From a virus (taxonomy: Duplodnaviria; Caudoviricetes): a stretch of DNA of 49,500 bases. The stretch is taken from positions 1 through 49,500 of the IMG/VR virus record IMGVR_UViG_3300020042_002050; one strand, written 5' to 3'. Shown piece by piece: positions 1 to 16,566 of the stretch. Made by a program: the position numbers and the translations under genes. Position 1 is the first letter of the stretch. Each line of letters starts with the position of its first letter. The notes under the pieces were generated by a model. The model was not told the DNA's origin. It saw only the letters and a list, made by a program, of their open reading frames with translations, and did not search any database.

Positions 1-671
1 CCCCGTGTCAATTGGTGCATATTGCTTTGGGCCTTCTGCGATGCGGTCTGTTTTTCAAGAACCCAATCTGCTTTAAATGACTGCCAATTTCGGACAATAG
101 TTTCTTTCAATGCGTCTTCAAGTGTCCACCCGGCTTTATTGGTTTCTTCAATAATCTTGTCAATCACCAACTGGGTGACTTTGGCTCTCTTGGATTTTCG
201 GTGTGAAACAAATTCCTGCCAAACGGATTCTGAAACGCCGTCAGGCGTTGCCACGGTAGTGGCTGTATTCTTTATTGGTTTATGGTTATTGGTTATTGGT
301 TCTTGGTTAGGGTTATGTTTGGAAACCTTTTGGGTTTCTTGTGGGTTTGTTTTAGGTCTGCCTCCAAGTTTGCCAACCTGCCTGTTTCTCTCGGCTTTGG
401 CCTGATAAGCCTCAATTGTTTCGTCACACCGTTTGTGAAACCAGCAATCGTTTTCTATGTCAAACATAAAAAATTCTTCCAAAACAATTTGAACAGCATT
501 GATGTGTTTAACCATTCGGATGCGTCTAGCAACCTCGTGGGTTTTGTTTGGGATTGGTTTTTCCTGCGTGTAATACAGGTCAAGAAGTCGGCGAAAAGCC
601 AAATCCTCGTCATTGCTTAAATGGGCAGTGTCGTGAAGGTAATCACTCACATGAAATGAATAATAGTGCAT
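1..671 (-). CDS. DUF1376/YdaU-like phage replication initiator (3' end outside window; absent from ORF track)
   Basis: Manual translation from ATG 671: MHYYSFHVSDYLHDTAHLSNDEDLAFRRLLDLYYTQEKPIP...WFHKRCDETIEAYQAKAERNRQVGKLGGRPK...VWQEFVSHRKSK...WQSFKADW. GGAG SD at 679-682. Lies downstream of a cro-like gene. Confidence 0.85.
   Translation of the reverse strand, partial: MHYYSFHVSDYLHDTAHLSNDEDLAFRRLLDLYYTQEKPIPNKTHEVARRIRMVKHINAVQIVLEEFFMFDIENDCWFHKRCDETIEAYQAKAERNRQVGKLGGRPKTNPQETQKVSKHNPNQEPITNNHKPIKNTATTVATPDGVSESVWQEFVSHRKSKRAKVTQLVIDKIIEETNKAGWTLEDALKETIVRNWQSFKADWVLEKQTASQKAQSNMHQLTR
275..316. repeat. Tandem 7-bp NTGGTTN repeats inside initiator gene (candidate origin/iterons)
   Basis: TTGGTTT ATGGTTA TTGGTTA TTGGTTC TTGGTTA GGGTTAT in an AT-rich, strand-biased tract. 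Lambdoid origins lie inside the initiator gene. Confidence 0.55.
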
Positions 672-676
672 TTTTT

Positions 677-763
677 TACTCCGCATACTCCCTGAAAGAA
701 ACAAGCGGCAGGGGGGGAGTACCCTTTTCGGTTTGGAGATCAAGCCAAACCTAGCCGTGTTTC
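677..763 (-). promoter_or_regulatory. Structured leader RNA (three-way junction with loop-SD pseudoknot) upstream of initiator
   Basis: Stems GAAACA-CGGC/GCCG-CT-TGTTTC, GGTTTGG/CCAAACC and AGGG/CCCT. Loop TACTCCC is complementary to GGGAGTA (692-686) and GGAGTA (682-677, the SD). Confidence 0.65.
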
Positions 764-769
764 AAAACA

Positions 770-925
770 TTATGCCTTAAACCACTCAGGCTTCAAAATC
801 ATTAACTGCCAAAGCCGCCCCTGTGGAATTGTCTGCCAGTTCCACACTGCGCCTCTTGTCACCCCCAGCAGCCTTGCCAAAGATGATTGTGAGCCAGCGA
901 GTTTGATTGCGTGTTCTTTAGTCAT
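770..925 (-). CDS. cro: Cro-like HTH repressor (51 aa; absent from ORF track)
   Basis: MTKEHAIKLAGSQSSLARLLGVTRGAVWNWQTIPQGRLWQLMILKPEWFKA; Cro/YdaS HTH pattern (GS-LA-LLGV---AV--W---P). Confidence 0.85.
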   Translation of the reverse strand: MTKEHAIKLAGSQSSLARLLGVTRGAVWNWQTIPQGRLWQLMILKPEWFKA

Positions 926-3860: not shown

Positions 3861-4069
3861 ACCAACAACTAATTGAACAACTCATAGAAGAATGTACTGA
3901 GTATTGGACAGATAAGGGTGACATTTATTTCGACAAAAAAAAGTTTGCCGCCCTTGTCGCAGCAGCCGAGCGTGAGGCGTGTGCAAAGGTGTGTGATGAA
4001 GTAGCTGAAAGCCGTGGTGATGCGGATGAGTGCGCTACCGAAATCAGAGCAAGAGGAGAAACAAAATGA
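3857..4069 (+). CDS. Conserved phage hypothetical protein (EREACAKVC...IRARG type)
   Basis: Recognisable motif; ATGA overlaps on both sides. Confidence 0.75.
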   Translation: MNQQLIEQLIEECTEYWTDKGDIYFDKKKFAALVAAAEREACAKVCDEVAESRGDADECATEIRARGETK

Positions 4070-4443
4070 AAAAACTTATTACCGTAACACTACTAGCCGC
4101 AGCCTTAGCAGGTTGCCAATCTGATGCTGACATTGCATCGTCAAACATGAGCAAAGCTGCTGACAACTTTGAGGTATCACGGCGTGTAGTTTTTTATAAC
4201 GGCATCACAGGCGACTACATGATGACCATTGAGGGCTTGTGTTCGCTTGGTAACTACGACAAGGCAAGAGAACTTTCACTGACCTGCAAGACAGGGCCGA
4301 CTACATACAAGAAGCATTTTCTTGGGCTGTCGGACAACGTGACGTTCTTTGTCGAGCAGTTGGAGCCAGTGAAGGTAAGCGCGTACCACTACCGTGTAAT
4401 CTTTAAGCCAGCATCCATTGTCCCTGACATTGAGATTAAGTAG
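4066..4443 (+). CDS. Lipoprotein
   Basis: Signal MKKLITVTLLAAALAG-C with lipobox LAGC; GAGGAG SD. Confidence 0.8.
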   Translation: MKKLITVTLLAAALAGCQSDADIASSNMSKAADNFEVSRRVVFYNGITGDYMMTIEGLCSLGNYDKARELSLTCKTGPTTYKKHFLGLSDNVTFFVEQLEPVKVSAYHYRVIFKPASIVPDIEIK

Positions 4444-7567: not shown

Positions 7568-7865
7568 TACAAGCATATATGGTCAGGCAGTACTCGATCA
7601 GAAATTTGGCAGCGGCACCATCTCAAGTGCACAGAACGCAGCCATGCAGCGCGGAGCCTATAACTCCATGATGCAAAACCCACAGGCTGTCTGGAAAGAA
7701 TATGAGCGTACTAGCCCTAACGTCGGTATTAACATCGAGCGTGCGTCGAACGGGTACATCATTCGCTCTCAAGGGACGCTCGTCGTAGCGACAACGCTGG
7801 AAGACCTGCAACAGCATGTCACGGCCATAGTCGTCAGCAGCCTAGTTCTCAGTGAAGGTAAATGA
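7557..7865 (+). CDS. Hypothetical protein
   Basis: ATG 7557; IERASNGYII motif; ATGA overlap with polA. Confidence 0.6.
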   Translation: MALDTSIYGQAVLDQKFGSGTISSAQNAAMQRGAYNSMMQNPQAVWKEYERTSPNVGINIERASNGYIIRSQGTLVVATTLEDLQQHVTAIVVSSLVLSEGK

Positions 7866-9703
7866 TGGACATTCTTACTGTTGACTTCGAGACTTACTAC
7901 GACAAGGACTTCTCCCTGTCAAAGATGCAGACGGATGCGTACATCAACGACGCGCAGTTTGAACTTATTGGCGTTGCAGTTATCAAGAACGAAGAACCTG
8001 CTGTGTGGTTTAGTGGCTCTGATCTGGAGACCATAGGCTGGCTGCGTACCAACTTCGACTGGGAAAACTCTGCTGTCCGCTGCCACAACACGCTCTTTGA
8101 CGGGTACATCCTGACGCAGCATTGTGGGATCAAGCCCAAGCTGTGGATGGACACACTTAGCCAAGGCCGCATGTTGCTGCCATACCTGACATCACATTCA
8201 CTAGCTAACCTCGCCAAGAACTACAACTTGCCAGACAAAGGCACTGCTGTAGTAAAGGCACTGGGTAAACGTCGCAAAGACTTTAATCCCATGGAATTAA
8301 TGGAGTACGCCGAGTACTGCATGCATGACGCATGGCTGTGCAAAGAGTTGGGCGCTAAGTTTGACCCGTTCACGCCTGCGTTGGCTATTAAGCTGATCGA
8401 CATGACTGTGCGTATGTTCACAGAGCCTATGCTTGTCGGAGACCAGTTCAAGATGAAGCAGCTGTACGACGACGAGATCAAGCGCAAAGCTGATCTGCTG
8501 GAACGGGCTGAGACCAACCGTGACGTCATTATGTCCAACGACAAGTTTGCAGAAGCGTTGCTGGCGCTGGGCGTTACCCCGCCGATGAAGCAGAGCAAGG
8601 CCAACCCAGACAAAGAGACCTACGCATTTGCAAAGAGTGACAAGGACTTCACTGACTTGCAAGAGCATGACGATCCTGATGTGCAAGCGTTGGTAGCAGC
8701 ACGTCTTGGAGTTAAGACCACCATCGCTGAAACACGGGCGCTTAAGTTCCTTGAGACTGCCAAGCGTGGCGCTTTGCCTGTGTACCTCAACTTCTGGGGC
8801 GCTAAAACGACTGGGCGTTACTCAGGCGGCAACAGCATCAATTGGCAAAATGTTCCCGCTCGTGGCCCGTCCGCTGGACTGCGTAAAGCACTGCTGGCTC
8901 CCTCTGGGCACACTGTGCTGGTGGGTGACTCGTCGAACATCGAACTGCGTACTGTGATGGCGCTGTCTGGGCAAGAAGATGTGCTAGACAAACTCGGCGC
9001 TGGTATTGACTTGTACTGCGACTTTGCCTCTAAGTTGTTTGGGCGAGACATAACGAAAGCTGACAAGGCTGAGCGGTTCCTTGGGAAGACGGCTATGTTA
9101 GGCTTGCAGTACGGTGCTGGCGCTAAGCGGTTTCAAGAGATGGTGCGGTTAGCCAAGCGCGTAGACCCTAGCGTCGAGTTGATCGACGAGAACAGGGCGC
9201 ACTCCATCGTTGACTTGTATAGAACTGTCCACTGGAGGGTGGTGCAGTTGTGGAAGCGCTGCAACGACGTAATCCTGCCTGACATTGCCAACGGCTGCAC
9301 CATGCTGAACGTAGATGTTAACGGCTGGTTCATCACCCAGTGGGACGGCTTTGGTCGCCCCGGAGAACCCGGTGTGATGTACAACGACCTGAAGTATGAC
9401 GGCAAGGACTGGACTTACCAGATGGGCAGGCAGCGGATAAACATCCACGGAGCTAAAGTTGTAGAAAATTTATCACAACATGCTGCAATGCAGATCGTTA
9501 TGTGGCAAACTGCACGTATCAATCAGCGCTACCCAGTGAAGCTCTCAGTCCATGACGAGGCTGTCTGTGTGGTGCCGAACGACGAACTTACTGAAGCTCA
9601 AGCGTACATGGAAGAGTGCCTTGCAATGACACCCAAGTGGTGTCGCAGCATTCCCGTTGCGTGCGAGACAGGAACTGGATCATCTTATGGAGATGCGAAA
9701 TAG
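7862..9703 (+). CDS. polA: Family A DNA polymerase with 3'-5' exonuclease domain
   Basis: Exo motifs DFET, HNTLFD, YCMHD; TTGRYSG; motif A DSSNIELR; motif B RFLGKTAMLGLQYG; motif C SVHDE. Confidence 0.95.
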   Translation: MMDILTVDFETYYDKDFSLSKMQTDAYINDAQFELIGVAVIKNEEPAVWFSGSDLETIGWLRTNFDWENSAVRCHNTLFDGYILTQHCGIKPKLWMDTLSQGRMLLPYLTSHSLANLAKNYNLPDKGTAVVKALGKRRKDFNPMELMEYAEYCMHDAWLCKELGAKFDPFTPALAIKLIDMTVRMFTEPMLVGDQFKMKQLYDDEIKRKADLLERAETNRDVIMSNDKFAEALLALGVTPPMKQSKANPDKETYAFAKSDKDFTDLQEHDDPDVQALVAARLGVKTTIAETRALKFLETAKRGALPVYLNFWGAKTTGRYSGGNSINWQNVPARGPSAGLRKALLAPSGHTVLVGDSSNIELRTVMALSGQEDVLDKLGAGIDLYCDFASKLFGRDITKADKAERFLGKTAMLGLQYGAGAKRFQEMVRLAKRVDPSVELIDENRAHSIVDLYRTVHWRVVQLWKRCNDVILPDIANGCTMLNVDVNGWFITQWDGFGRPGEPGVMYNDLKYDGKDWTYQMGRQRINIHGAKVVENLSQHAAMQIVMWQTARINQRYPVKLSVHDEAVCVVPNDELTEAQAYMEECLAMTPKWCRSIPVACETGTGSSYGDAK

Positions 9704-9704
9704 T

Positions 9705-10397
9705 ATGACAACACCGATGCCTTTGTCGTTTAGCCGACTGTCCACCTTCGAGCAGTGCCCTGCGCAGTTCGATTACTTGTATGTGACCAGACGTGTGCAG
9801 AGCACGATGAACGAGGCATCAGAGTATGGAGATAGAGTACACAAATTGTTAGAAGCCAAGGGTAACGGCTCACTTGATGAAACCACACTGTCGCTAGAAG
9901 GCAAGCAGTCGCTAGAACGCTGGGGGCCGCTGGTTGAGAACATCACATCACGCGATGGCGAGAAGCTGTTCGAGCATCAGATGTCGGTCAATCGCCAGTT
10001 GCAACCTGTGGACTGGTTCGCCAAGGATGTATGGATTCGCTCTATCGCTGACGTGCTGGTCGTCGATGGTGACACAGCGTACTGCCTCGACTACAAGACT
10101 GGAAAAGTTAAGGAGAACCCAACGCAGTTGCAGTTGTTCGCGGCCATGGTGTTCTGGCATTACCCAGAGGTGACAAAGGTAAAGACCTCGTTCATCTGGC
10201 TCAAGTTTGACGAGGTGACAAACGCAACGTATGAGCGTCGCTTTCTTGACGCGCTATGGCGGGCACTGGAGCCACGCTTTGACAAGGTGCAGGAAGTGAT
10301 TGACCTCGGCGTATTTAAAACAAAACCATCGGGCCTGTGCCCATGGTGCCCAGCGAAGGGGTTCTGCCCTGACGCACGACTGAAAGGTAAGAGATGA
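9705..10397 (+). CDS. PD-(D/E)XK Cas4-like exonuclease
   Basis: LSFSRLSTFEQCP, IADVL, DYKTGK, QLQLFA, C-terminal CPWCP....C. Confidence 0.85.
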   Translation: MTTPMPLSFSRLSTFEQCPAQFDYLYVTRRVQSTMNEASEYGDRVHKLLEAKGNGSLDETTLSLEGKQSLERWGPLVENITSRDGEKLFEHQMSVNRQLQPVDWFAKDVWIRSIADVLVVDGDTAYCLDYKTGKVKENPTQLQLFAAMVFWHYPEVTKVKTSFIWLKFDEVTNATYERRFLDALWRALEPRFDKVQEVIDLGVFKTKPSGLCPWCPAKGFCPDARLKGKR

Positions 10398-10696
10398 ATA
10401 AAGAAGCTGACGTTAAGAAAATTGTGAAGACCGTGCTCATGAGTGAGCCCAAGTGCTGGTGGTTTATGCCACCCGCCAATGGTTATGGCCGTTCGGGTAT
10501 TCCTGACTTTGTTGGCTGTGTGAATGGGTTCTTGTTTGCCGTAGAGACTAAGTTCGGCAAGGGCACTACCACTGCCAATCAAGAAAGGGAACTACACCAA
10601 CTGACACAGAGCGGTGCAAAGGTGTGGATTGTCCGCGAGACATCAGTAGACACATGGGGAATTGAGTTCAAGGCATGGGCGGCTTTATGCTTGTGA
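10394..10696 (+). CDS. VRR-NUC domain nuclease
   Basis: E..VK, GYGRSGIPDF, AVETKFGKG.TT..Q. Confidence 0.85.
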   Translation: MNKEADVKKIVKTVLMSEPKCWWFMPPANGYGRSGIPDFVGCVNGFLFAVETKFGKGTTTANQERELHQLTQSGAKVWIVRETSVDTWGIEFKAWAALCL

Positions 10697-12240
10697 TACC
10701 GGACAAGCGCAAGATAATTATTGACAGCAATGAGAATGCAGCCGTAGCACAAGCTATCCCACACGCCAAGCTGCTGAAGCACGATGGCAAAGATATGCTG
10801 GCTATGCCCTACGGCGTTGACGAGTCGATGGTGCTTAAGAACTTAGGCTTTAATGTGCCAGCACCAATCTTGCAGTACTACAACTGGCCCGGTCGCTTCA
10901 CAGCAATGGATCACCAGAGAGAGACCGCCGCATTCTTAACGATGCATAAGCGTGCCCTGTGCCTAAACGCGCCGGGTACTGGCAAGTCAATTAGCTCGTT
11001 GTGGGCTGCGGACTTTCTGCTAGACGAAGGCATTGCACGGAAGGTGCTCATCGTCGCTCCGCTGTCAACAGTGAAGGTGGTATGGGGTAGCGAGCTTAGA
11101 CATCATTTGCCGCACCGCTCGTTTGTTATGTGCACAGGGTCTAAGCAAAAACGGATTGAGTTACTACAGACCCCCGGAGTGCAGTACGTCATCATCAATC
11201 ATGACGGATTCACAACGATGCAGAACGAGTTGGTTGGCTTTGACGTGGTCATCTACGACGAGGCTACGGCGCTCAAGTCTCCAAGTTCACAGCGGTACAG
11301 GATTTTTTCTAGGTGGATACAAAAGCACAGGCCATGGCTATGGATGATGACAGGTACGCCTATTTCGCAGACCCCCGCAGACGCGTGGACGCTGTCTAGA
11401 CTTGTCGACGCACCGCTGTGCCCAAAGAGCTTTACTACGTTTAAAGACATGGTGATGCAGAAGGTGACGACGTTTAAGTGGACGCCGCGACATGACGCGC
11501 TGGAGACCTGCCGCAAAGTTTTGCAGCCATCAATCAGGTTCTCGCTGGACGAGTGCAAAGACTTACCACAGACGAACTTTGTTGGGCGTAAGACAGAGCT
11601 TACAAAGCAACAGGAGAAAGCCTTCAAGGACATGAAGGACAAAGCTATAACTATTTTCTCGGCGGGTGAAGTGACAGCTGCCAACACTGCTGTAATGCTA
11701 AGCAAACTGCTACAGATTAGTTGTGGCGTTGTCTACGGGGATGGCACTACGATTGCCATAGACGCTTCGGAGCGTTATAATACGCTTACGGAATTACTTA
11801 CAGAGATCGGCGACAAAGCGATCATCTTCGTGCCGCTCAAGGGCGTGCAAGTTTGGCTGCGCGATAAGCTGACAGCAGATGGTTTTGATGTTGCAATGGT
11901 CAATGGTGACACTAGCAAGAAAGTTCGTGATGAGATTTTTAGTGACTTTCAGAACAAGGACAGGCCACAGATTTTGCTGGCTCATCCAAAGGTTGCTGCT
12001 CACGGGTTGACACTCACACGATCTAAGGACATCATTTGGTTTGCTCCAATTTATTCACTTGAACAGTACGAGCAAGCTAATGCAAGGATTCGCCGGTTGA
12101 CTACAACCGGCAAAACGACTGTGTGGCACATATGGGCTACCGGCTTTGAAGCAGAGTTGTACCGCAGACTCCGCGAAAAGAGAAACACACTTGCGGAATT
12201 TTTAACCTTGGTGCAAGGCATCAACAGTGACGATGAATAA
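10687..12240 (+). CDS. SNF2-like SF2 helicase
   Basis: PGTGKS, YDEAT, MTGTP, HGLTL, QANARIRR. Confidence 0.9.
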   Translation: MLVIPDKRKIIIDSNENAAVAQAIPHAKLLKHDGKDMLAMPYGVDESMVLKNLGFNVPAPILQYYNWPGRFTAMDHQRETAAFLTMHKRALCLNAPGTGKSISSLWAADFLLDEGIARKVLIVAPLSTVKVVWGSELRHHLPHRSFVMCTGSKQKRIELLQTPGVQYVIINHDGFTTMQNELVGFDVVIYDEATALKSPSSQRYRIFSRWIQKHRPWLWMMTGTPISQTPADAWTLSRLVDAPLCPKSFTTFKDMVMQKVTTFKWTPRHDALETCRKVLQPSIRFSLDECKDLPQTNFVGRKTELTKQQEKAFKDMKDKAITIFSAGEVTAANTAVMLSKLLQISCGVVYGDGTTIAIDASERYNTLTELLTEIGDKAIIFVPLKGVQVWLRDKLTADGFDVAMVNGDTSKKVRDEIFSDFQNKDRPQILLAHPKVAAHGLTLTRSKDIIWFAPIYSLEQYEQANARIRRLTTTGKTTVWHIWATGFEAELYRRLREKRNTLAEFLTLVQGINSDDE

Positions 12241-12252
12241 AAAAGGTGACTT

Positions 12253-12645
12253 ATGAATTACGACATTGCCGCAGAGAAATATCTGCAAGTTCGCAACGAG
12301 ATAGATGGTCTTGAACGCGATCACAAAACGGCTAAGGCCAAACTTACGGAAAAACTGGTAGCGCTGGAAAACTGGATGACAGCTAAAGCGCAAGAGGACG
12401 GACTGGAGACAGTCAAGACTCCACATGGTACGGCCTACTGGTCTGTACATCACACCGCAACAGTTGGTTCTCGTGAAGAGTTCTTTAACTTTTGCAAAGA
12501 GCATGACGCGTGGGATATGGTCGAGTCCCGCGCATCAAAAACCGGAGTCAAGAGTTACATCGAGGCTAACGGGGCACCTCCACCGGGGGTAAATTTTTCA
12601 TCGGCAAAAGTGTTCAATATGCGCAAAGCGCAATCTAAGGAGTAA
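12253..12645 (+). CDS. Conserved replication-module protein (coiled coil)
   Basis: 130 aa; KTPHGTAY and PPPGV motifs; lies between helicase and SSB-like gene. Confidence 0.7.
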   Translation: MNYDIAAEKYLQVRNEIDGLERDHKTAKAKLTEKLVALENWMTAKAQEDGLETVKTPHGTAYWSVHHTATVGSREEFFNFCKEHDAWDMVESRASKTGVKSYIEANGAPPPGVNFSSAKVFNMRKAQSKE

Positions 12646-12649
12646 ATAA

Positions 12650-13543
12650 GTGAGTAACATGATCGCAAATGTCCCAGCGCACATTGCTGCGCGTATCGCA
12701 GCCCGCCAACAGGCAGGCACTAAGTCCAGCGTAGCCTCGGCTATCGTCAGTGACAACGGCCCAAGCATCCCCCGCATCAGCATCCGTGCTGGTCGGTATC
12801 GCTTGAACGAGGAAGGCGTTGAGACCACAGTCGGTGTCACGCTGGATACTATCATTGTGGGAGCAAATCCACGGGTGTCTAAAGTGTTCTATGGCAAGGC
12901 GTTTGACGCTTCCGCCGAGAACGTACGCCCTGACTGCTGGTCTAATGACGGGCTTAAGCCTGACGTAACCCTCGACGCTCCTGTGCATAATTCATGCGCA
13001 GATTGCCCCAACAATGTGCTGGGCTCAAAGATTCTGCCGTCTGGTGCAAAGTCTAAGATGTGCGCCGACCAGCGCCACCTTGCCGTGGTAGCAGCCGCTG
13101 ACCCAACAAAGGTCTATAGCCTTACTGTGCCAGTAAGTGGCATGAAAGCCCTGCGCGAGTACTTTAAAGACTTGGGCAATTACAACATCGGCCCAGAGGA
13201 AGTGGTCACCGAGTTGGGCTTTGATGACGCTGCCAGCTATCCAAAGATCACATTTAAGCAGAAGGGATACGTGCCAGAAAAAGCCATCAACCGCGTGGAC
13301 ATTTTGCTCGTAAGCGACTCTGTTAAAGTAGCAACTCGCCAAATAGCCCCCAAAGACGCAGGCCCAGCATTGGCTGCTCCAGTGGGTAAAACAGCGATTG
13401 CTGCGCCAGCAGTGGACGATGCCTATGAGGAAGAAGCACCCACCCCAGTGGTCGCTGCGACACCAAAGTCTAAGCCCACAGTTGTCCCAGTAAAAGCGTC
13501 GGATGAACTGGCCGCAAAGCTGGACAGCCTGTTCGACGAGTAA
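12650..13543 (+). CDS. Putative ssDNA-binding/annealing protein
   Basis: PRISIR, P.CWSNDG..P, CADCP, K.C motifs; Ala/Pro linker; acidic tail LDSLFDE; typical position in PolA modules. Confidence 0.6.
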   Translation: MSNMIANVPAHIAARIAARQQAGTKSSVASAIVSDNGPSIPRISIRAGRYRLNEEGVETTVGVTLDTIIVGANPRVSKVFYGKAFDASAENVRPDCWSNDGLKPDVTLDAPVHNSCADCPNNVLGSKILPSGAKSKMCADQRHLAVVAAADPTKVYSLTVPVSGMKALREYFKDLGNYNIGPEEVVTELGFDDAASYPKITFKQKGYVPEKAINRVDILLVSDSVKVATRQIAPKDAGPALAAPVGKTAIAAPAVDDAYEEEAPTPVVAATPKSKPTVVPVKASDELAAKLDSLFDE

Positions 13544-13549
13544 TAGAAT
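13521..13549 (+). promoter_or_regulatory. Sigma70-like promoter
   Basis: TGGACA-17 bp-TAGAAT. Confidence 0.5.
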
Positions 13550-13563
13550 TCTCTAAAGCACAC

Positions 13564-13586
13564 CCCCGGCATATGCCGGGGTTTTT
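13564..13586 (+). terminator. Rho-independent terminator
   Basis: CCCCGGC-ATAT-GCCGGGG-TTTTT. Confidence 0.8.
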
Positions 13587-13602
13587 CATCTAGGGGCATG
13601 TC

Positions 13603-16566
13603 TTGGACACCAAAAACTTTCTTACTCGCGTATTTGCCCAGCTAGACGAACTCGTTATCTGCACCCATAAGCCTGACCAATCAGGCAAGAACCAACGTGG
13701 TTTCTTTTGGAACAGAGGATCGTTCACTAGCATCGACGACGCGTTACTTTCAATTTCACGCTGGGACTCTGAGCCCAACACAACTGTCTACTTCGGCGTA
13801 GGCTCATTTGCAGGGCATAGCTATGTGGATGACGGCAAGCAGAAGTGGTATCGAAAACAGGAACACGCTACATGGTTCAAGGCACTCGCTCTTGATCTAG
13901 ACATTGGAGCGGACAAACCATACGCTACGCAGAAAGAGGGCTGGGGCGTAATGCAAGCAGCGCTGCTGAAGATCGGTATGCCATCACCCATGGTCGTATC
14001 GTCAGGCAACGGCATTCACTTGTACTGGCCCTTGGTGCAGACGATCAGCAGAGATCATTGGGTCAAAGCGTCAACTGCATTGCGGGTAGCTCTAGAAGAG
14101 CATGGAGTAGAAATTGATACCTCAAAAATTCATGATCCGTCGATGGTGCTTAGGCCAGTCGGTACGCACCACAAAAAGCAACAGCCATGGAAAGATGTCC
14201 GGTGTGTTGCGGACTGCCCAGACTACGATGCAGTATCGCTATTCGGAATTCTTAAGCCATGGTTTGGCAAAGCAGCGACAGTTGCGGCCAAAGCCACAGC
14301 ACCGCGCAAAGGCGGCAAGTCCTCCATACTGGACGCAGTGCTCAACTCGAACGATGTACGCATAGACGCAGTAGCATCACGCTGTAATCAAGTTGGATCG
14401 TTGGTTGCCTCTGGTGGCGTGCTTGATGCTGCTGGTAGGCCCGTAGAAGAGCCGCTGTGGCGTGCATCACTAGGCTTAGCAAAGCATTGCACAGACGTGG
14501 CGGATGCCATAGTGAAGCTCGCTGGCAAGCACAAAGACTTTGACCTAAACGCAAATCTCGACAAGGTAAACGGGTGGAACGGCACGGGGCCTACAACCTG
14601 TGCAAAGTTTGAGCAGCTGTGTGCTAAGGGCTGCGAGGGTTGCCCAAGTCGAGGAAATATAACGAGCCCAGCGCAGTTATCTGTGGTCACAGAGACCGCA
14701 GTAGAAAACGAAAAAGGCGACGATATTGTGCTGGCTTTGCCGCCGAGTTACGTCATCCAGAACGGGCAGATTTATCGTGAAGTGAAGACCGAGGTCTCAA
14801 CTACGGATGCCAATGGCAATGAAGTAGCACAGGAAGTGGTTGAGTTTGACCATGTCAGTCGGTACGAGATGCACATAACAGGCGTGTACAACGACAACGA
14901 AAGCGGCAAGGCGGCGTTCAAGCTGCTGGTGAAATACCCGATGACGGGCTGGCTAGAGACAGAGCACGACATTGCAGTGCTAGCTTCGATAGGCAAAGAT
15001 TTCAGCGGCTTCCTGCTCAACAGGCAGGTATTTGTGAAGAGCATTCCGCAACAGGAAAAAATTAGGGGTTACTTAATGGATTACTTGACGATGGTGCAGC
15101 AGCAATCGCCTACAGGGCAGGACTTCGTTAGCTTCGGCTGGCAAAAAGATGGGTCATTCATGTGCGGCGCTAAGTTGCTTGGTTCAGCGCACGGAGAAAC
15201 AGACACGCGTTTGCGTGGGCCCGCTAAAGCCTTTGCCGATCTGATCGCTCCGCATGGGACTCGGGAGGGCTGGGTAAGTGGCATGGAGATGCTCAATAAC
15301 GCTGGCACCGAAACAATTCGTGCTGCTACGCTGCTGGCAACTACAGGCATCCTAGGGCCAGTGGCTGGCAACGCTACCCTTGTCGTATCCATTTACTCAA
15401 CAGAGACCACCACAGGGAAAACCCTATCCCTGATTTCTGCTAACAGTCTAATCGGCTCACCTAAGAAATTGTTCCTAAGCCAGAAAGATACGATGAATGC
15501 GCTGTACAAGCAGCGCGGTGTTCTGAACAATTTGCCATGCTGCATTGACGAGATGACCGCAGCGGACGATAAAGAGATGGTCGATATTACGTACCAGCTG
15601 AGCATGGGGCGGGAGAAGGTATCCATGACCAAAGACCGCGACCTGCGCGACCCTGCGACATGGGACGGCTTGACGCTACTGACGACAAATATCTCTATAT
15701 GGGAGAAGTTCCAGAGCGCACAAGCTGGCAACGAGCCCCTCAAAGCACGATGCCTAGAGCTACCCCAGCACGACCGCACGTTTGTCGCTACACGCCCTGA
15801 CGGCAAGAGCGATGGCTATGAGTTCTTTGACCTGATGGCAGAGAACAATGGCTGGGCTTTCCCTGAGCTTGTGCAGTTTGTGCTGGACAACGGCGGGCAG
15901 AAAAAAGCATGGGAGTGGGCAGAGCGTTCGTTTGTTAAGACGTTCGGCTTTGTCTTCGAGCCGCAAGAGCGCTTTTACCGCACGGCTATTATTTCTGCGT
16001 GGGGCATGGGCACTATCGGCGCTAAGCTGGGTCTGTTTCCATTCGATGTGCAGGGCACGATCCAGTACCTAGTTGACCACGTCAAGAAAGCACGGCAGAC
16101 CGCCATCGACAGCAAGACCGATGTGTTCGACATTATTGGCCTGTTCTTGGCTGAGCACAACGACCAGCTTATTGAGTGCAGGGAACGCTATGGTTCAGGT
16201 GTAGAGCAAGTCACATTGCCAGCACCGGAGAGAGCCGTTGCCCGTGTCAAGATTGTGTACGACGACAAGATTGCGATCATGCCCGGTAGTCAGGTAGCTA
16301 TCAATGCTGAGAAGCTGCGCTCATGGCTTAAAATTAAGCGAGATGGGCTGGATCGTATAGAGAACGAGTTGCAAGATGAGAACGCACTGCTGCGCCGCCG
16401 TGACCGCGTAACGATGTTTAAGGGTTGCCCGAAGCATGCACCGGGACAGATGCAGTGTCTCATCGTCAACCTGAATCACCCTAGGTTCATCGACAGCCTA
16501 ACGGGAACATCAGCACGGGCGCAGAGCAAAATTACGCTGGCAGTTCTCGGCGGTGTGTCAGTGTGA
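13603..16566 (+). CDS. Primase (RepB/AEP-like) fused to DUF927-type helicase
   Basis: LDLD, SSGNGIHLYW, LRPVGT.H.K, Cys cluster C..CEGCP, FGWQ, TTGKT Walker A, IDEMT; TTG start. Confidence 0.85.
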   Translation: MDTKNFLTRVFAQLDELVICTHKPDQSGKNQRGFFWNRGSFTSIDDALLSISRWDSEPNTTVYFGVGSFAGHSYVDDGKQKWYRKQEHATWFKALALDLDIGADKPYATQKEGWGVMQAALLKIGMPSPMVVSSGNGIHLYWPLVQTISRDHWVKASTALRVALEEHGVEIDTSKIHDPSMVLRPVGTHHKKQQPWKDVRCVADCPDYDAVSLFGILKPWFGKAATVAAKATAPRKGGKSSILDAVLNSNDVRIDAVASRCNQVGSLVASGGVLDAAGRPVEEPLWRASLGLAKHCTDVADAIVKLAGKHKDFDLNANLDKVNGWNGTGPTTCAKFEQLCAKGCEGCPSRGNITSPAQLSVVTETAVENEKGDDIVLALPPSYVIQNGQIYREVKTEVSTTDANGNEVAQEVVEFDHVSRYEMHITGVYNDNESGKAAFKLLVKYPMTGWLETEHDIAVLASIGKDFSGFLLNRQVFVKSIPQQEKIRGYLMDYLTMVQQQSPTGQDFVSFGWQKDGSFMCGAKLLGSAHGETDTRLRGPAKAFADLIAPHGTREGWVSGMEMLNNAGTETIRAATLLATTGILGPVAGNATLVVSIYSTETTTGKTLSLISANSLIGSPKKLFLSQKDTMNALYKQRGVLNNLPCCIDEMTAADDKEMVDITYQLSMGREKVSMTKDRDLRDPATWDGLTLLTTNISIWEKFQSAQAGNEPLKARCLELPQHDRTFVATRPDGKSDGYEFFDLMAENNGWAFPELVQFVLDNGGQKKAWEWAERSFVKTFGFVFEPQERFYRTAIISAWGMGTIGAKLGLFPFDVQGTIQYLVDHVKKARQTAIDSKTDVFDIIGLFLAEHNDQLIECRERYGSGVEQVTLPAPERAVARVKIVYDDKIAIMPGSQVAINAEKLRSWLKIKRDGLDRIENELQDENALLRRRDRVTMFKGCPKHAPGQMQCLIVNLNHPRFIDSLTGTSARAQSKITLAVLGGVSV

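Follow-up and report, generated by a model that had tools for sequence, protein, structure and literature searches.

Results

A structured leader between a Cro-like gene and a likely replication initiator gene

The DNA analyzed here, hereafter the window, is the whole stretch of 49,500 nucleotides (positions 1 to 49,500) of IMG/VR virus record IMGVR_UViG_3300020042_002050 (Duplodnaviria; Caudoviricetes). Close to its first position, a Cro-like gene and a likely replication initiator gene follow each other on the - strand, and between them lies a three-way-junction RNA leader with three helices (P1, P2, and P3) and two short sites further downstream (Table 1). The initiator gene begins with an ATG at 671 (-), matches Pfam PF07120 (E 4e-23) and the PHROGs annotations primosomal protein and replication initiation O-like, and carries iteron-like repeats inside the gene at about 301, 294, 280, and 144. 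The stop codon of the Cro-like gene overlaps the -10 hexamer of a predicted sigma-70 promoter and lies 6 nt upstream of P1; the promoter prediction scored 9/12, and two sites were found where 1.0 was expected.

The region 925-1092 is a divergent promoter region with the Cro-like gene, and no CI-like ORF was seen there before the ERF/YqaJ recombination genes. We also noted two replication modules in this one record, at 3-671 (-) and at 7862-16566 (+), the latter with DNA polymerase A, an exonuclease, an SF2 helicase, and a 987-aa primase/helicase; with such paired modules, the phage would be a mosaic or the contig a chimera. An RDF-like match was found at 4030-4443.

Table 1. Genes and leader elements in the window (positions are those of the window; in the - strand transcript, elements are read from high to low numbers).
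Feature	Position	Strand	Description
Cro-like gene	770..925	-	51-aa ORF; Pfam P22_Cro E 1.2e-9
Predicted sigma-70 promoter	769..796	-	-35 at 796-791, -10 at 774-769; start ~763 = first P1 base
P1 5' strand	754..763	-	pairs with 709-698; GAAACA-CGGC
Other junction linkers	UA 753-752, CU 711-710	-	as in int-alpA consensus
P2 hairpin	730..751	-	7-bp stem 751-745/736-730 (GGTTTGG/CCAAACC); 8-nt loop L2 744-737
L2 self-complementary core GAUC	738..741	-	predicted kissing (dimer) element
Junction linker GAAAA	725..729	-	as in int-alpA consensus (cmscan alignment)
P3 hairpin	712..724	-	GGG/CCC stem; 7-nt loop L3 UACUCCC 721-715; register from covariation
P1 3' strand with CU bulge	698..709	-	GCCG-CT-TGTTTC; then U-rich linker 697-693
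Site 1, GGGAGTA	686..692	-	complementary to all 7 nt of L3; predicted to pair with it in a cis pseudoknot (parking site)
Site 2, GGAGTA	677..682	-	6-nt complement of L3; GGAG Shine-Dalgarno 7 nt upstream of ATG
Likely replication initiator	3..671	-	cut by window end; DUF1376/YdaU N-terminus, O-like C-terminal part

Fold of the leader and register of P3

A first-pass annotation, made from the letters of the window, had described P1, P2, P3, and both sites; each element was found on the - strand where it had been placed, and RNAfold recovered the three-way junction. The junction alone (697-763) folded at -24.0, compared with -13.7 ± 2.9 for shuffled sequences, of which 3/1000 matched it; the longer stretch 660-780 was not unusually stable relative to shuffles (z -0.13). 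In an alignment of 22 rows, among them one mis-cut row (L071) that does not represent a leader, five of the seven P2 pairs showed compensatory changes.

The same alignment settled the register of P3. The first-pass annotation had drawn an AGGG/CCCT stem, and the corresponding AGGG/CCCU register with an 8-nt loop is also what RNAfold chose for the single sequence (-24.0 vs -21.8). Across the 22 rows, this register was 72.7% paired with zero compensatory changes, and we rejected it, whereas the register GGG 724-722 / CCC 714-712 was 100% paired with 13 compensatory changes. The homologues thus fix a GGG/CCC stem and the linkers UA, GAAAA, and CU, together with the loop UACUCCC, which complements site 1 at every position.

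As free duplexes, L3 would pair with site 1 at -10.8 kcal/mol and with site 2 at -8.6 kcal/mol. Two separate 6-nt matches to L3 in the 35-nt tail arose in 22/200,000 shuffles (a post-hoc test), and the other GGAGTA hexamers in the window are single. Neither the parser described below nor a covariance-model search that accepted E values up to 1 found another copy of the leader in this genome. We also considered a hammerhead or other ribozyme reading; Rfam returned no such match.

The leader is a sub-threshold relative of int-alpA

The first-pass annotation had remarked that a strong Rfam match would make the structure a known motif instead of a new one. At the gathering level, Rfam gave no match in the window, and a cmscan against Rfam aligned the full int-alpA model (RF02996, 1-71 of 71) to 690-761 (-) with 29.8 bits (E 3e-4), a score that does not reach the gathering cut-off of 35.8 bits. 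The features that mark int-alpA were present: the UA, GAAAA, and CU linkers, the G-C closing pairs of P2 and P3, and a position ahead of phage/mobile-element genes. Related loci spread across the cut-off. Of 20 searched with the model, 13 passed, including one ahead of the same initiator family (L007), six scored 25.7-34.9, and one had no match; of 50 virus records, 39 matched and 28 passed. We therefore filed the window leader as a long-P2, sub-threshold relative of int-alpA, not as a formal member.

The two share the UA / GAAAA / CU junction and differ in P2, which has 7 bp and an 8-nt loop in the window leader but 4 bp and a 5-nt loop in int-alpA. The Rfam model stops within site 1, so that site 2 is outside the model, and neither L3 nor L2 pairing is drawn in its printed structure, although cmscan omits pseudoknots and the seed may hold one. 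The motif reportedly originates from the Weinberg 2017 survey. Rfam gives its entry type as 'Gene; sRNA'. The main text of PMC5737381 does not name 'alpA', and int-alpA is not named in the parts covered of PMC12990946 and PMC10690425. In the mostly non-subscription literature that we covered, int-alpA occurred as a table entry and as a gene-order label, and no mechanism was found. Our searches on dimers, kissing loops, and phage leaders likewise returned no account of this RNA, although the pseudoknot or the palindrome may already be described in supplements.

Leaders of this type are common and occur ahead of nuclease, initiator, and integrase genes

We gathered 80 loci by homology of the initiator protein; inspection by eye found the whole leader right before the ATG in 76, a cut leader in one, and none in three. 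Four junction patterns added 120, 120, 120, and 122 loci. A parser that considers stems and linkers only, and is blind to the loops and to what follows the junction, found 363 instances, distributed over 359 of 563 sources; the 204 sources with no call comprise chance pattern matches and many true leaders with irregular stems. Conservation of the linkers is built into the pattern-derived sets by selection, but the linkers were also near-invariant in the leaders gathered by protein homology. Twenty of the 363 instances were excluded from the site test and 14 from the L2 test described below.

By record title, the pattern-derived loci include genomes of Pseudomonadota, Planctomycetota, Acidobacteriota, Bacillota, Chloroflexota, and Nitrospirota. 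One junction pattern occurred in about 6,500 IMG/VR stretches, and 77 of 120 sampled were parsed as true leaders. Twenty records of cultured phages, from Enterobacter, Klebsiella, Salmonella, Vibrio, and Pseudomonas, carry the leader as well, and Enterobacter phage Tyrion is among them. A promoter-like TAnnnT hexamer ended 3-7 nt upstream of P1 in 61/66 distinct initiator leaders and, in the whole family, in 82/191, compared with 20 and 17 in control windows.

Among 150 non-redundant downstream proteins, many of them cut by the flank, 48 had a Pfam match: 16 HNH/NUMOD4, one NUMOD3, five GIY-YIG, six DUF1376, five HTH_36, four integrases, and 11 others, that is, 22 of homing-nuclease type, 11 of initiator type (DUF1376, HTH_36), and four integrases. 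Homing nucleases, initiators, and integrases are all dose-sensitive. Two loci had a context of their own. In one of the cultured phages (L568:2501-2585), the leader precedes a small gene between lysis and terminase genes, and at L179:212-288 (+), an Rfam isrJ match (39.5 bits, above its cut-off) ends ~12 nt before an int-alpA-type leader.

The P3 loop covaries with two downstream sites, the second of which overlaps the Shine-Dalgarno

From the window alone, the first-pass annotation had proposed that the P3 loop is complementary to two tandem downstream sites and that the second contains the Shine-Dalgarno (SD). Both proposals hold in the homologues, where each site covaried with the loop far above swap controls. 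We compared 191 distinct L3 loops (343 usable instances) with their own downstream windows and with those of other leaders. The longest Watson-Crick run between L3 and its own site 1 window was 5.49, compared with 3.07 when swapped (maximum of 10,000 permutations, 3.31); for site 2, it was 4.79 compared with 3.34 (maximum 3.59). Matching in coding-sequence and upstream control windows was at the null level. Both sites matched L3 in 149 of the 191 loops, compared with 5.0% when swapped. Forty-one loops have no anti-SD content, and even these matched site 1 in 37/41 and site 2 in 34/41 (15.5% and 22.1% when swapped); the two-site covariation is thus not an artefact of the SD.

The geometry of the sites was regular. 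Site 1 begins 12-13 nt past the top of P1, site 2 follows with a period of ~12 nt (12 ± 2), and the end of site 2 lies mostly 5-10 nt upstream of the start codon, with an overlap of an SD-like 4-mer in 120/133. This period was independent of the P2 arm (short arms 12.5, n = 117; long arms 12.4, n = 35; p = 0.84). Site 1 is transcribed before site 2 and is the stronger in 116/191, with site 2 stronger in 70/191. Pairing was flush with the 3' end of L3 in 129/158 for site 1 but in 37/158 for site 2, a difference suggesting that the two sites are engaged differently. Within L3, the footprints of the two sites share 4-5 nt in 119/152, hence a single L3 would be unable to hold both. In six leaders (L196, L197, L279, L472, L507, and L561), site 2 lies 27-44 nt past site 1 with a predicted hairpin between them; these hairpins reached p < 0.05 against shuffles in just two of the six.

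In the sequences compared here, both sites clearly covary with L3 and site 2 clearly overlaps the SD, and this two-site reading is well supported. Control of translation through site 2 is very likely. The first-pass annotation had gone further and suggested a two-position switch controlling initiator translation. The covariation, the overlapping footprints, and the SD overlap bear out its two positions; on the other hand, the leader is not specific to initiators, the proposal named no input, and it missed the self-complementarity of L2, the best candidate for such an input.

The P2 loop is self-complementary

A palindrome of at least 4 nt was present in 64 of 85 distinct L2 loops, compared with 26.2 ± 3.8 in shuffles (maximum 41 of 5000), and one of at least 6 nt in 24 of the 85, compared with 3.0. 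Among these loops, 15 of the 16 possible palindromic 4-mers are used. L3 loops were depleted in palindromes (16/187 vs 32.5). When one leader was taken per downstream-gene cluster, 98/138 had an L2 palindrome, compared with 35.6 ± 4.7 in shuffles (maximum 53) and with 46/323 control hairpin loops; 15 more of these 138 contexts have a GACG loop (a tetraloop found in 27/363 instances overall), and among the 25 that are left, a GC or CG core is retained in 24.

The self-complementarity is maintained by covariation. In a gapless alignment of 35 distinct 13-nt P2 arms, one pair of adjacent columns was Watson-Crick in 35/35 (GC 16, CG 11, AU 4, UA 4), the next flanking pair also in 35/35, and the third in just 16/35; the L2 register was set on these same 35 rows, so that a slide control is favourable by construction, but no other centre exceeded 50% within this class. 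In the 22-nt P2 class to which the window leader belongs, the same two pairs were complementary in 47/47 and 42/47. The flanks of the core are unpaired and mostly adenine, and the palindrome sits in a fixed register to the RNA stem, off the stem centre. Among close relatives, L2 is exchanged, with 22 distinct L2 loops in 101 leaders of one gene family.

We also considered L2 as a second cis-pairing loop and rejected this candidate, since its complementarity to the flanks was at swap level (run 3.63 vs 3.70 swapped) and no cis partner was found there. Adjacent bases cannot pair within one strand and no cis partner lies nearby, hence L2 pairing is most simply intermolecular, and kissing between L2 loops of two molecules is likely. 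The 4-bp GAUC kiss of the window leader would be weak (-4.2 kcal/mol as a free duplex).

Genomes with two leaders offered a further view of L2. It differed in five of seven same-genome pairs (L263, L345, G038, G018, L227/L240), which is not beyond chance, and two pairs share both L2 and L3 (L497/L498, L209/L280). In L263, the leaders are near-identical duplicates in which one L2 palindrome has been swapped for another. In each of four records (L345, L354, L373, and L387), a pair of leaders, at about 255 and 600 and separated by 345 bp, precedes two consecutive genes; the L2 palindromes of the pair differ, and the L3 loops are one base apart. In L345, the Rfam model detects one of the two. A single lineage has a non-self-complementary L2 (20 instances); it has no sites and instead carries a 6-nt palindrome in L3. 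This lineage, seen in L448, L449, L453, L465, L553, and others, lies ahead of primase-polymerase genes. Lastly, one leader (L099, -, 501-545) is arm-swapped: it has the junction core, but its P2 loop matches both sites with an 8-nt run, and its P3 is tiny.

Discussion

Comparison with known systems

The first-pass annotation had likened the locus to the pseudoknot control of IncI/IncB plasmid rep genes. In IncI1/IncB repZ, translation depends on a pseudoknot that an antisense RNA from the opposite strand blocks (PMC8053102, as far as covered). A leader pseudoknot before a replication initiator, with possible copy-number feedback, is common to both, but the plasmid systems use an antisense inhibitor and a leader peptide, whereas here L3 targets the ribosome-binding site itself. 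The start region offered no conserved hairpin hiding the ribosome-binding site that site 1 could open: across 152 leaders, accessibility was 0.50 with the own coding sequence and 0.51 with swapped ones. The analogy is accordingly a poor fit. The specific candidate, in which site 1 acts as an anti-start-region strand for IncI-like activation, was rejected too, as RNAfold gave a weak hairpin between site 1 and the coding sequence in the window that is not conserved. On the + strand, the region 600-1150 has no promoter-like site, and the terminator-like call there (710-726, +) is the reverse of P3.

A closer likeness is to phage P4 CI RNA and Gifsy-1 IsrK, small leader-derived RNAs that pair in trans with their own transcript. 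In the parts of PMC4825925 covered, IsrK is a short isoform of its own leader that activates the long mRNA in trans ~140-fold, and P4 CI RNA has two targets, one upstream and one downstream, causing termination. In the window leader, by contrast, one loop has both its targets in tandem further downstream, and there is a self-complementary loop besides. No C4-type or IsrK model was among the six Rfam matches up to E 10 in 600-1100.

L2 for its part resembles the retroviral kissing-loop dimers, of which the HIV-1 DIS is one. The cores are self-complementary and kept so by compensatory change, as in kissing homodimers, the flanks are unpaired and mostly adenine, and the same GACG tetraloop recurs; in Moloney viruses, GACG loops form a kissing homodimer of two base pairs (PMC7357161, in the parts covered). 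Retroviral kissing loops serve genome dimerisation and packaging, whereas here the loop belongs to a phage or bacterial mRNA leader and would be tied to occlusion of the ribosome-binding site. By analogy, the leader would work most like P4 CI and Gifsy-1 IsrK joined to a retrovirus-type kissing loop.

A proposed self-sensing translational brake and its alternatives

A kissing dimer holds two L3 loops and a leader holds two L3 sites, which led us to read the two together. In a lone leader, L3 would be parked on site 1, leaving the ribosome-binding site open and translation on; we take site 1 as the cis parking site because it is made first, is more often the stronger, and allows flush stacking. 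A second copy would dock through P2-P2 kissing, and the L3 of the partner would close site 2. Candidates for the partner with a free L3 are a nascent leader, a full leader in a domain-swapped dimer, and a short RNA from the 5' part that ends ahead of site 1 through termination or trimming. Initiator or nuclease would be made in a burst when transcription first begins, and output would then be capped by the growing amount of leader RNA, with the sequences of L2 and L3 setting self-specificity. Output that falls with leader RNA would suit initiators, nucleases, and integrases. That dimerisation is the input and shuts translation off has moderate odds, and the whole chain, from L2 kissing through closure of site 2 to feedback, hangs in the balance. 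The lineage that lacks both a self-complementary L2 and the sites, and the exchange of one palindrome for another in L263, speak for it. Several observations weigh against it. A strong U-tract, from which short RNAs could be made, is not general (at least 6 U in 8 nt in 68/191). The weak 4-bp kiss, the loops in which site 2 is the stronger, the spacer hairpins that beat shuffles in just two of six leaders, and the two same-genome pairs with shared L2 and L3 do not favour it either. The strength of site 2 did not rise with the L2 palindrome (mean run 4.5 for 6-nt palindromes, 4.8 for 4-nt palindromes, and 4.8 for GACG). The independence of the site period from P2 length counts against a rigid tethered geometry. 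Moreover, a symmetric dimer of full leaders could keep both L3 loops on their own site 1 and give no repression.

The same two sites might instead be served within one molecule, with a single L3 moving between them and L2 kissing, if any, serving otherwise; the driver of the move could be folding kinetics, a ribosome that finishes on the gene upstream, or a ligand or protein bound to the conserved junction. The overlapping L3 footprints would suit such a pseudoknot, as would the fixed register of site 1, a period that ignores P2 length, and the near-invariant linkers of the homology-gathered leaders, and a stop codon lies within 19 nt upstream of P1 in 61/66 initiator leaders. Yet this cis-only scheme gives no reason for L2 to be self-complementary, with compensatory changes, across most downstream-gene contexts, the downstream proteins are too diverse for one autogenous regulator, and a promoter that starts the RNA at P1 would free many leaders from upstream translation. 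We regard it as rather unlikely. Kissing could also work in the opposite sense, the monomer holding L3 on site 2 (off) and the dimer moving it to site 1 (on), for a threshold or positive feedback. The L2 and two-site data fit this equally, site 2 is the stronger in a sizeable minority of loops, and IsrK offers a precedent for activation of its long mRNA in trans (PMC4825925, in the parts covered). Against this, site 1, being made first, more often stronger, and mostly flush, looks like the default cis state, and positive feedback on nucleases or initiators seems to us a less likely design; such activation appears improbable.

It is also conceivable that only the L3 pairings matter and that the L2 palindrome is a feature of the DNA (methylation or restriction, hairpin template switching) or a site for a protein or RNase. 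Many L2 cores are common restriction or methylation sites, and the motif lies just downstream of the promoter. A DNA feature would scarcely be held in register with an RNA stem and off its centre, however, and the palindrome is swapped among close relatives and differs between copies in one genome. In some leaders, GACG or a 2-bp core between mismatched flanks stands in its place, a mark of RNA kissing loops, not of DNA palindromes, and we consider this explanation very improbable.

Implications

The structure is real and conserved; as a variant of a motif already in the catalogue, it does not make a new RNA family. Natural RNA oligomers are seldom reported (PMC12990946 and PMC7357161, in the parts covered), and the literature that we covered, mostly outside subscription journals, yielded no mRNA leader whose homodimerisation gates translation. 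The self-complementarity of L2 thus points to a specific and possibly new mechanism, a leader sensing the concentration of its own RNA, and it provides a testable mechanism for a common catalogued motif that has no known function. More tentatively, and with the balance tipped slightly against it, int-alpA-type leaders at large may be widespread self-counting riboregulators whose ligand is another copy of themselves, with L2 and L3 defining orthogonal self-recognition groups.

If the self-sensing brake is true, it would give replication initiators, homing nucleases, and integrases a negative feedback that requires no protein. It might also contribute to superinfection control, and at 70 nt the leader would offer a programmable part for which nature supplies orthogonal variants. 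Phages and mobile genes would then sense their RNA dose with neither a protein nor an antisense gene, and through it the copy number of the genome, the time since entry, or the presence of a resident prophage.
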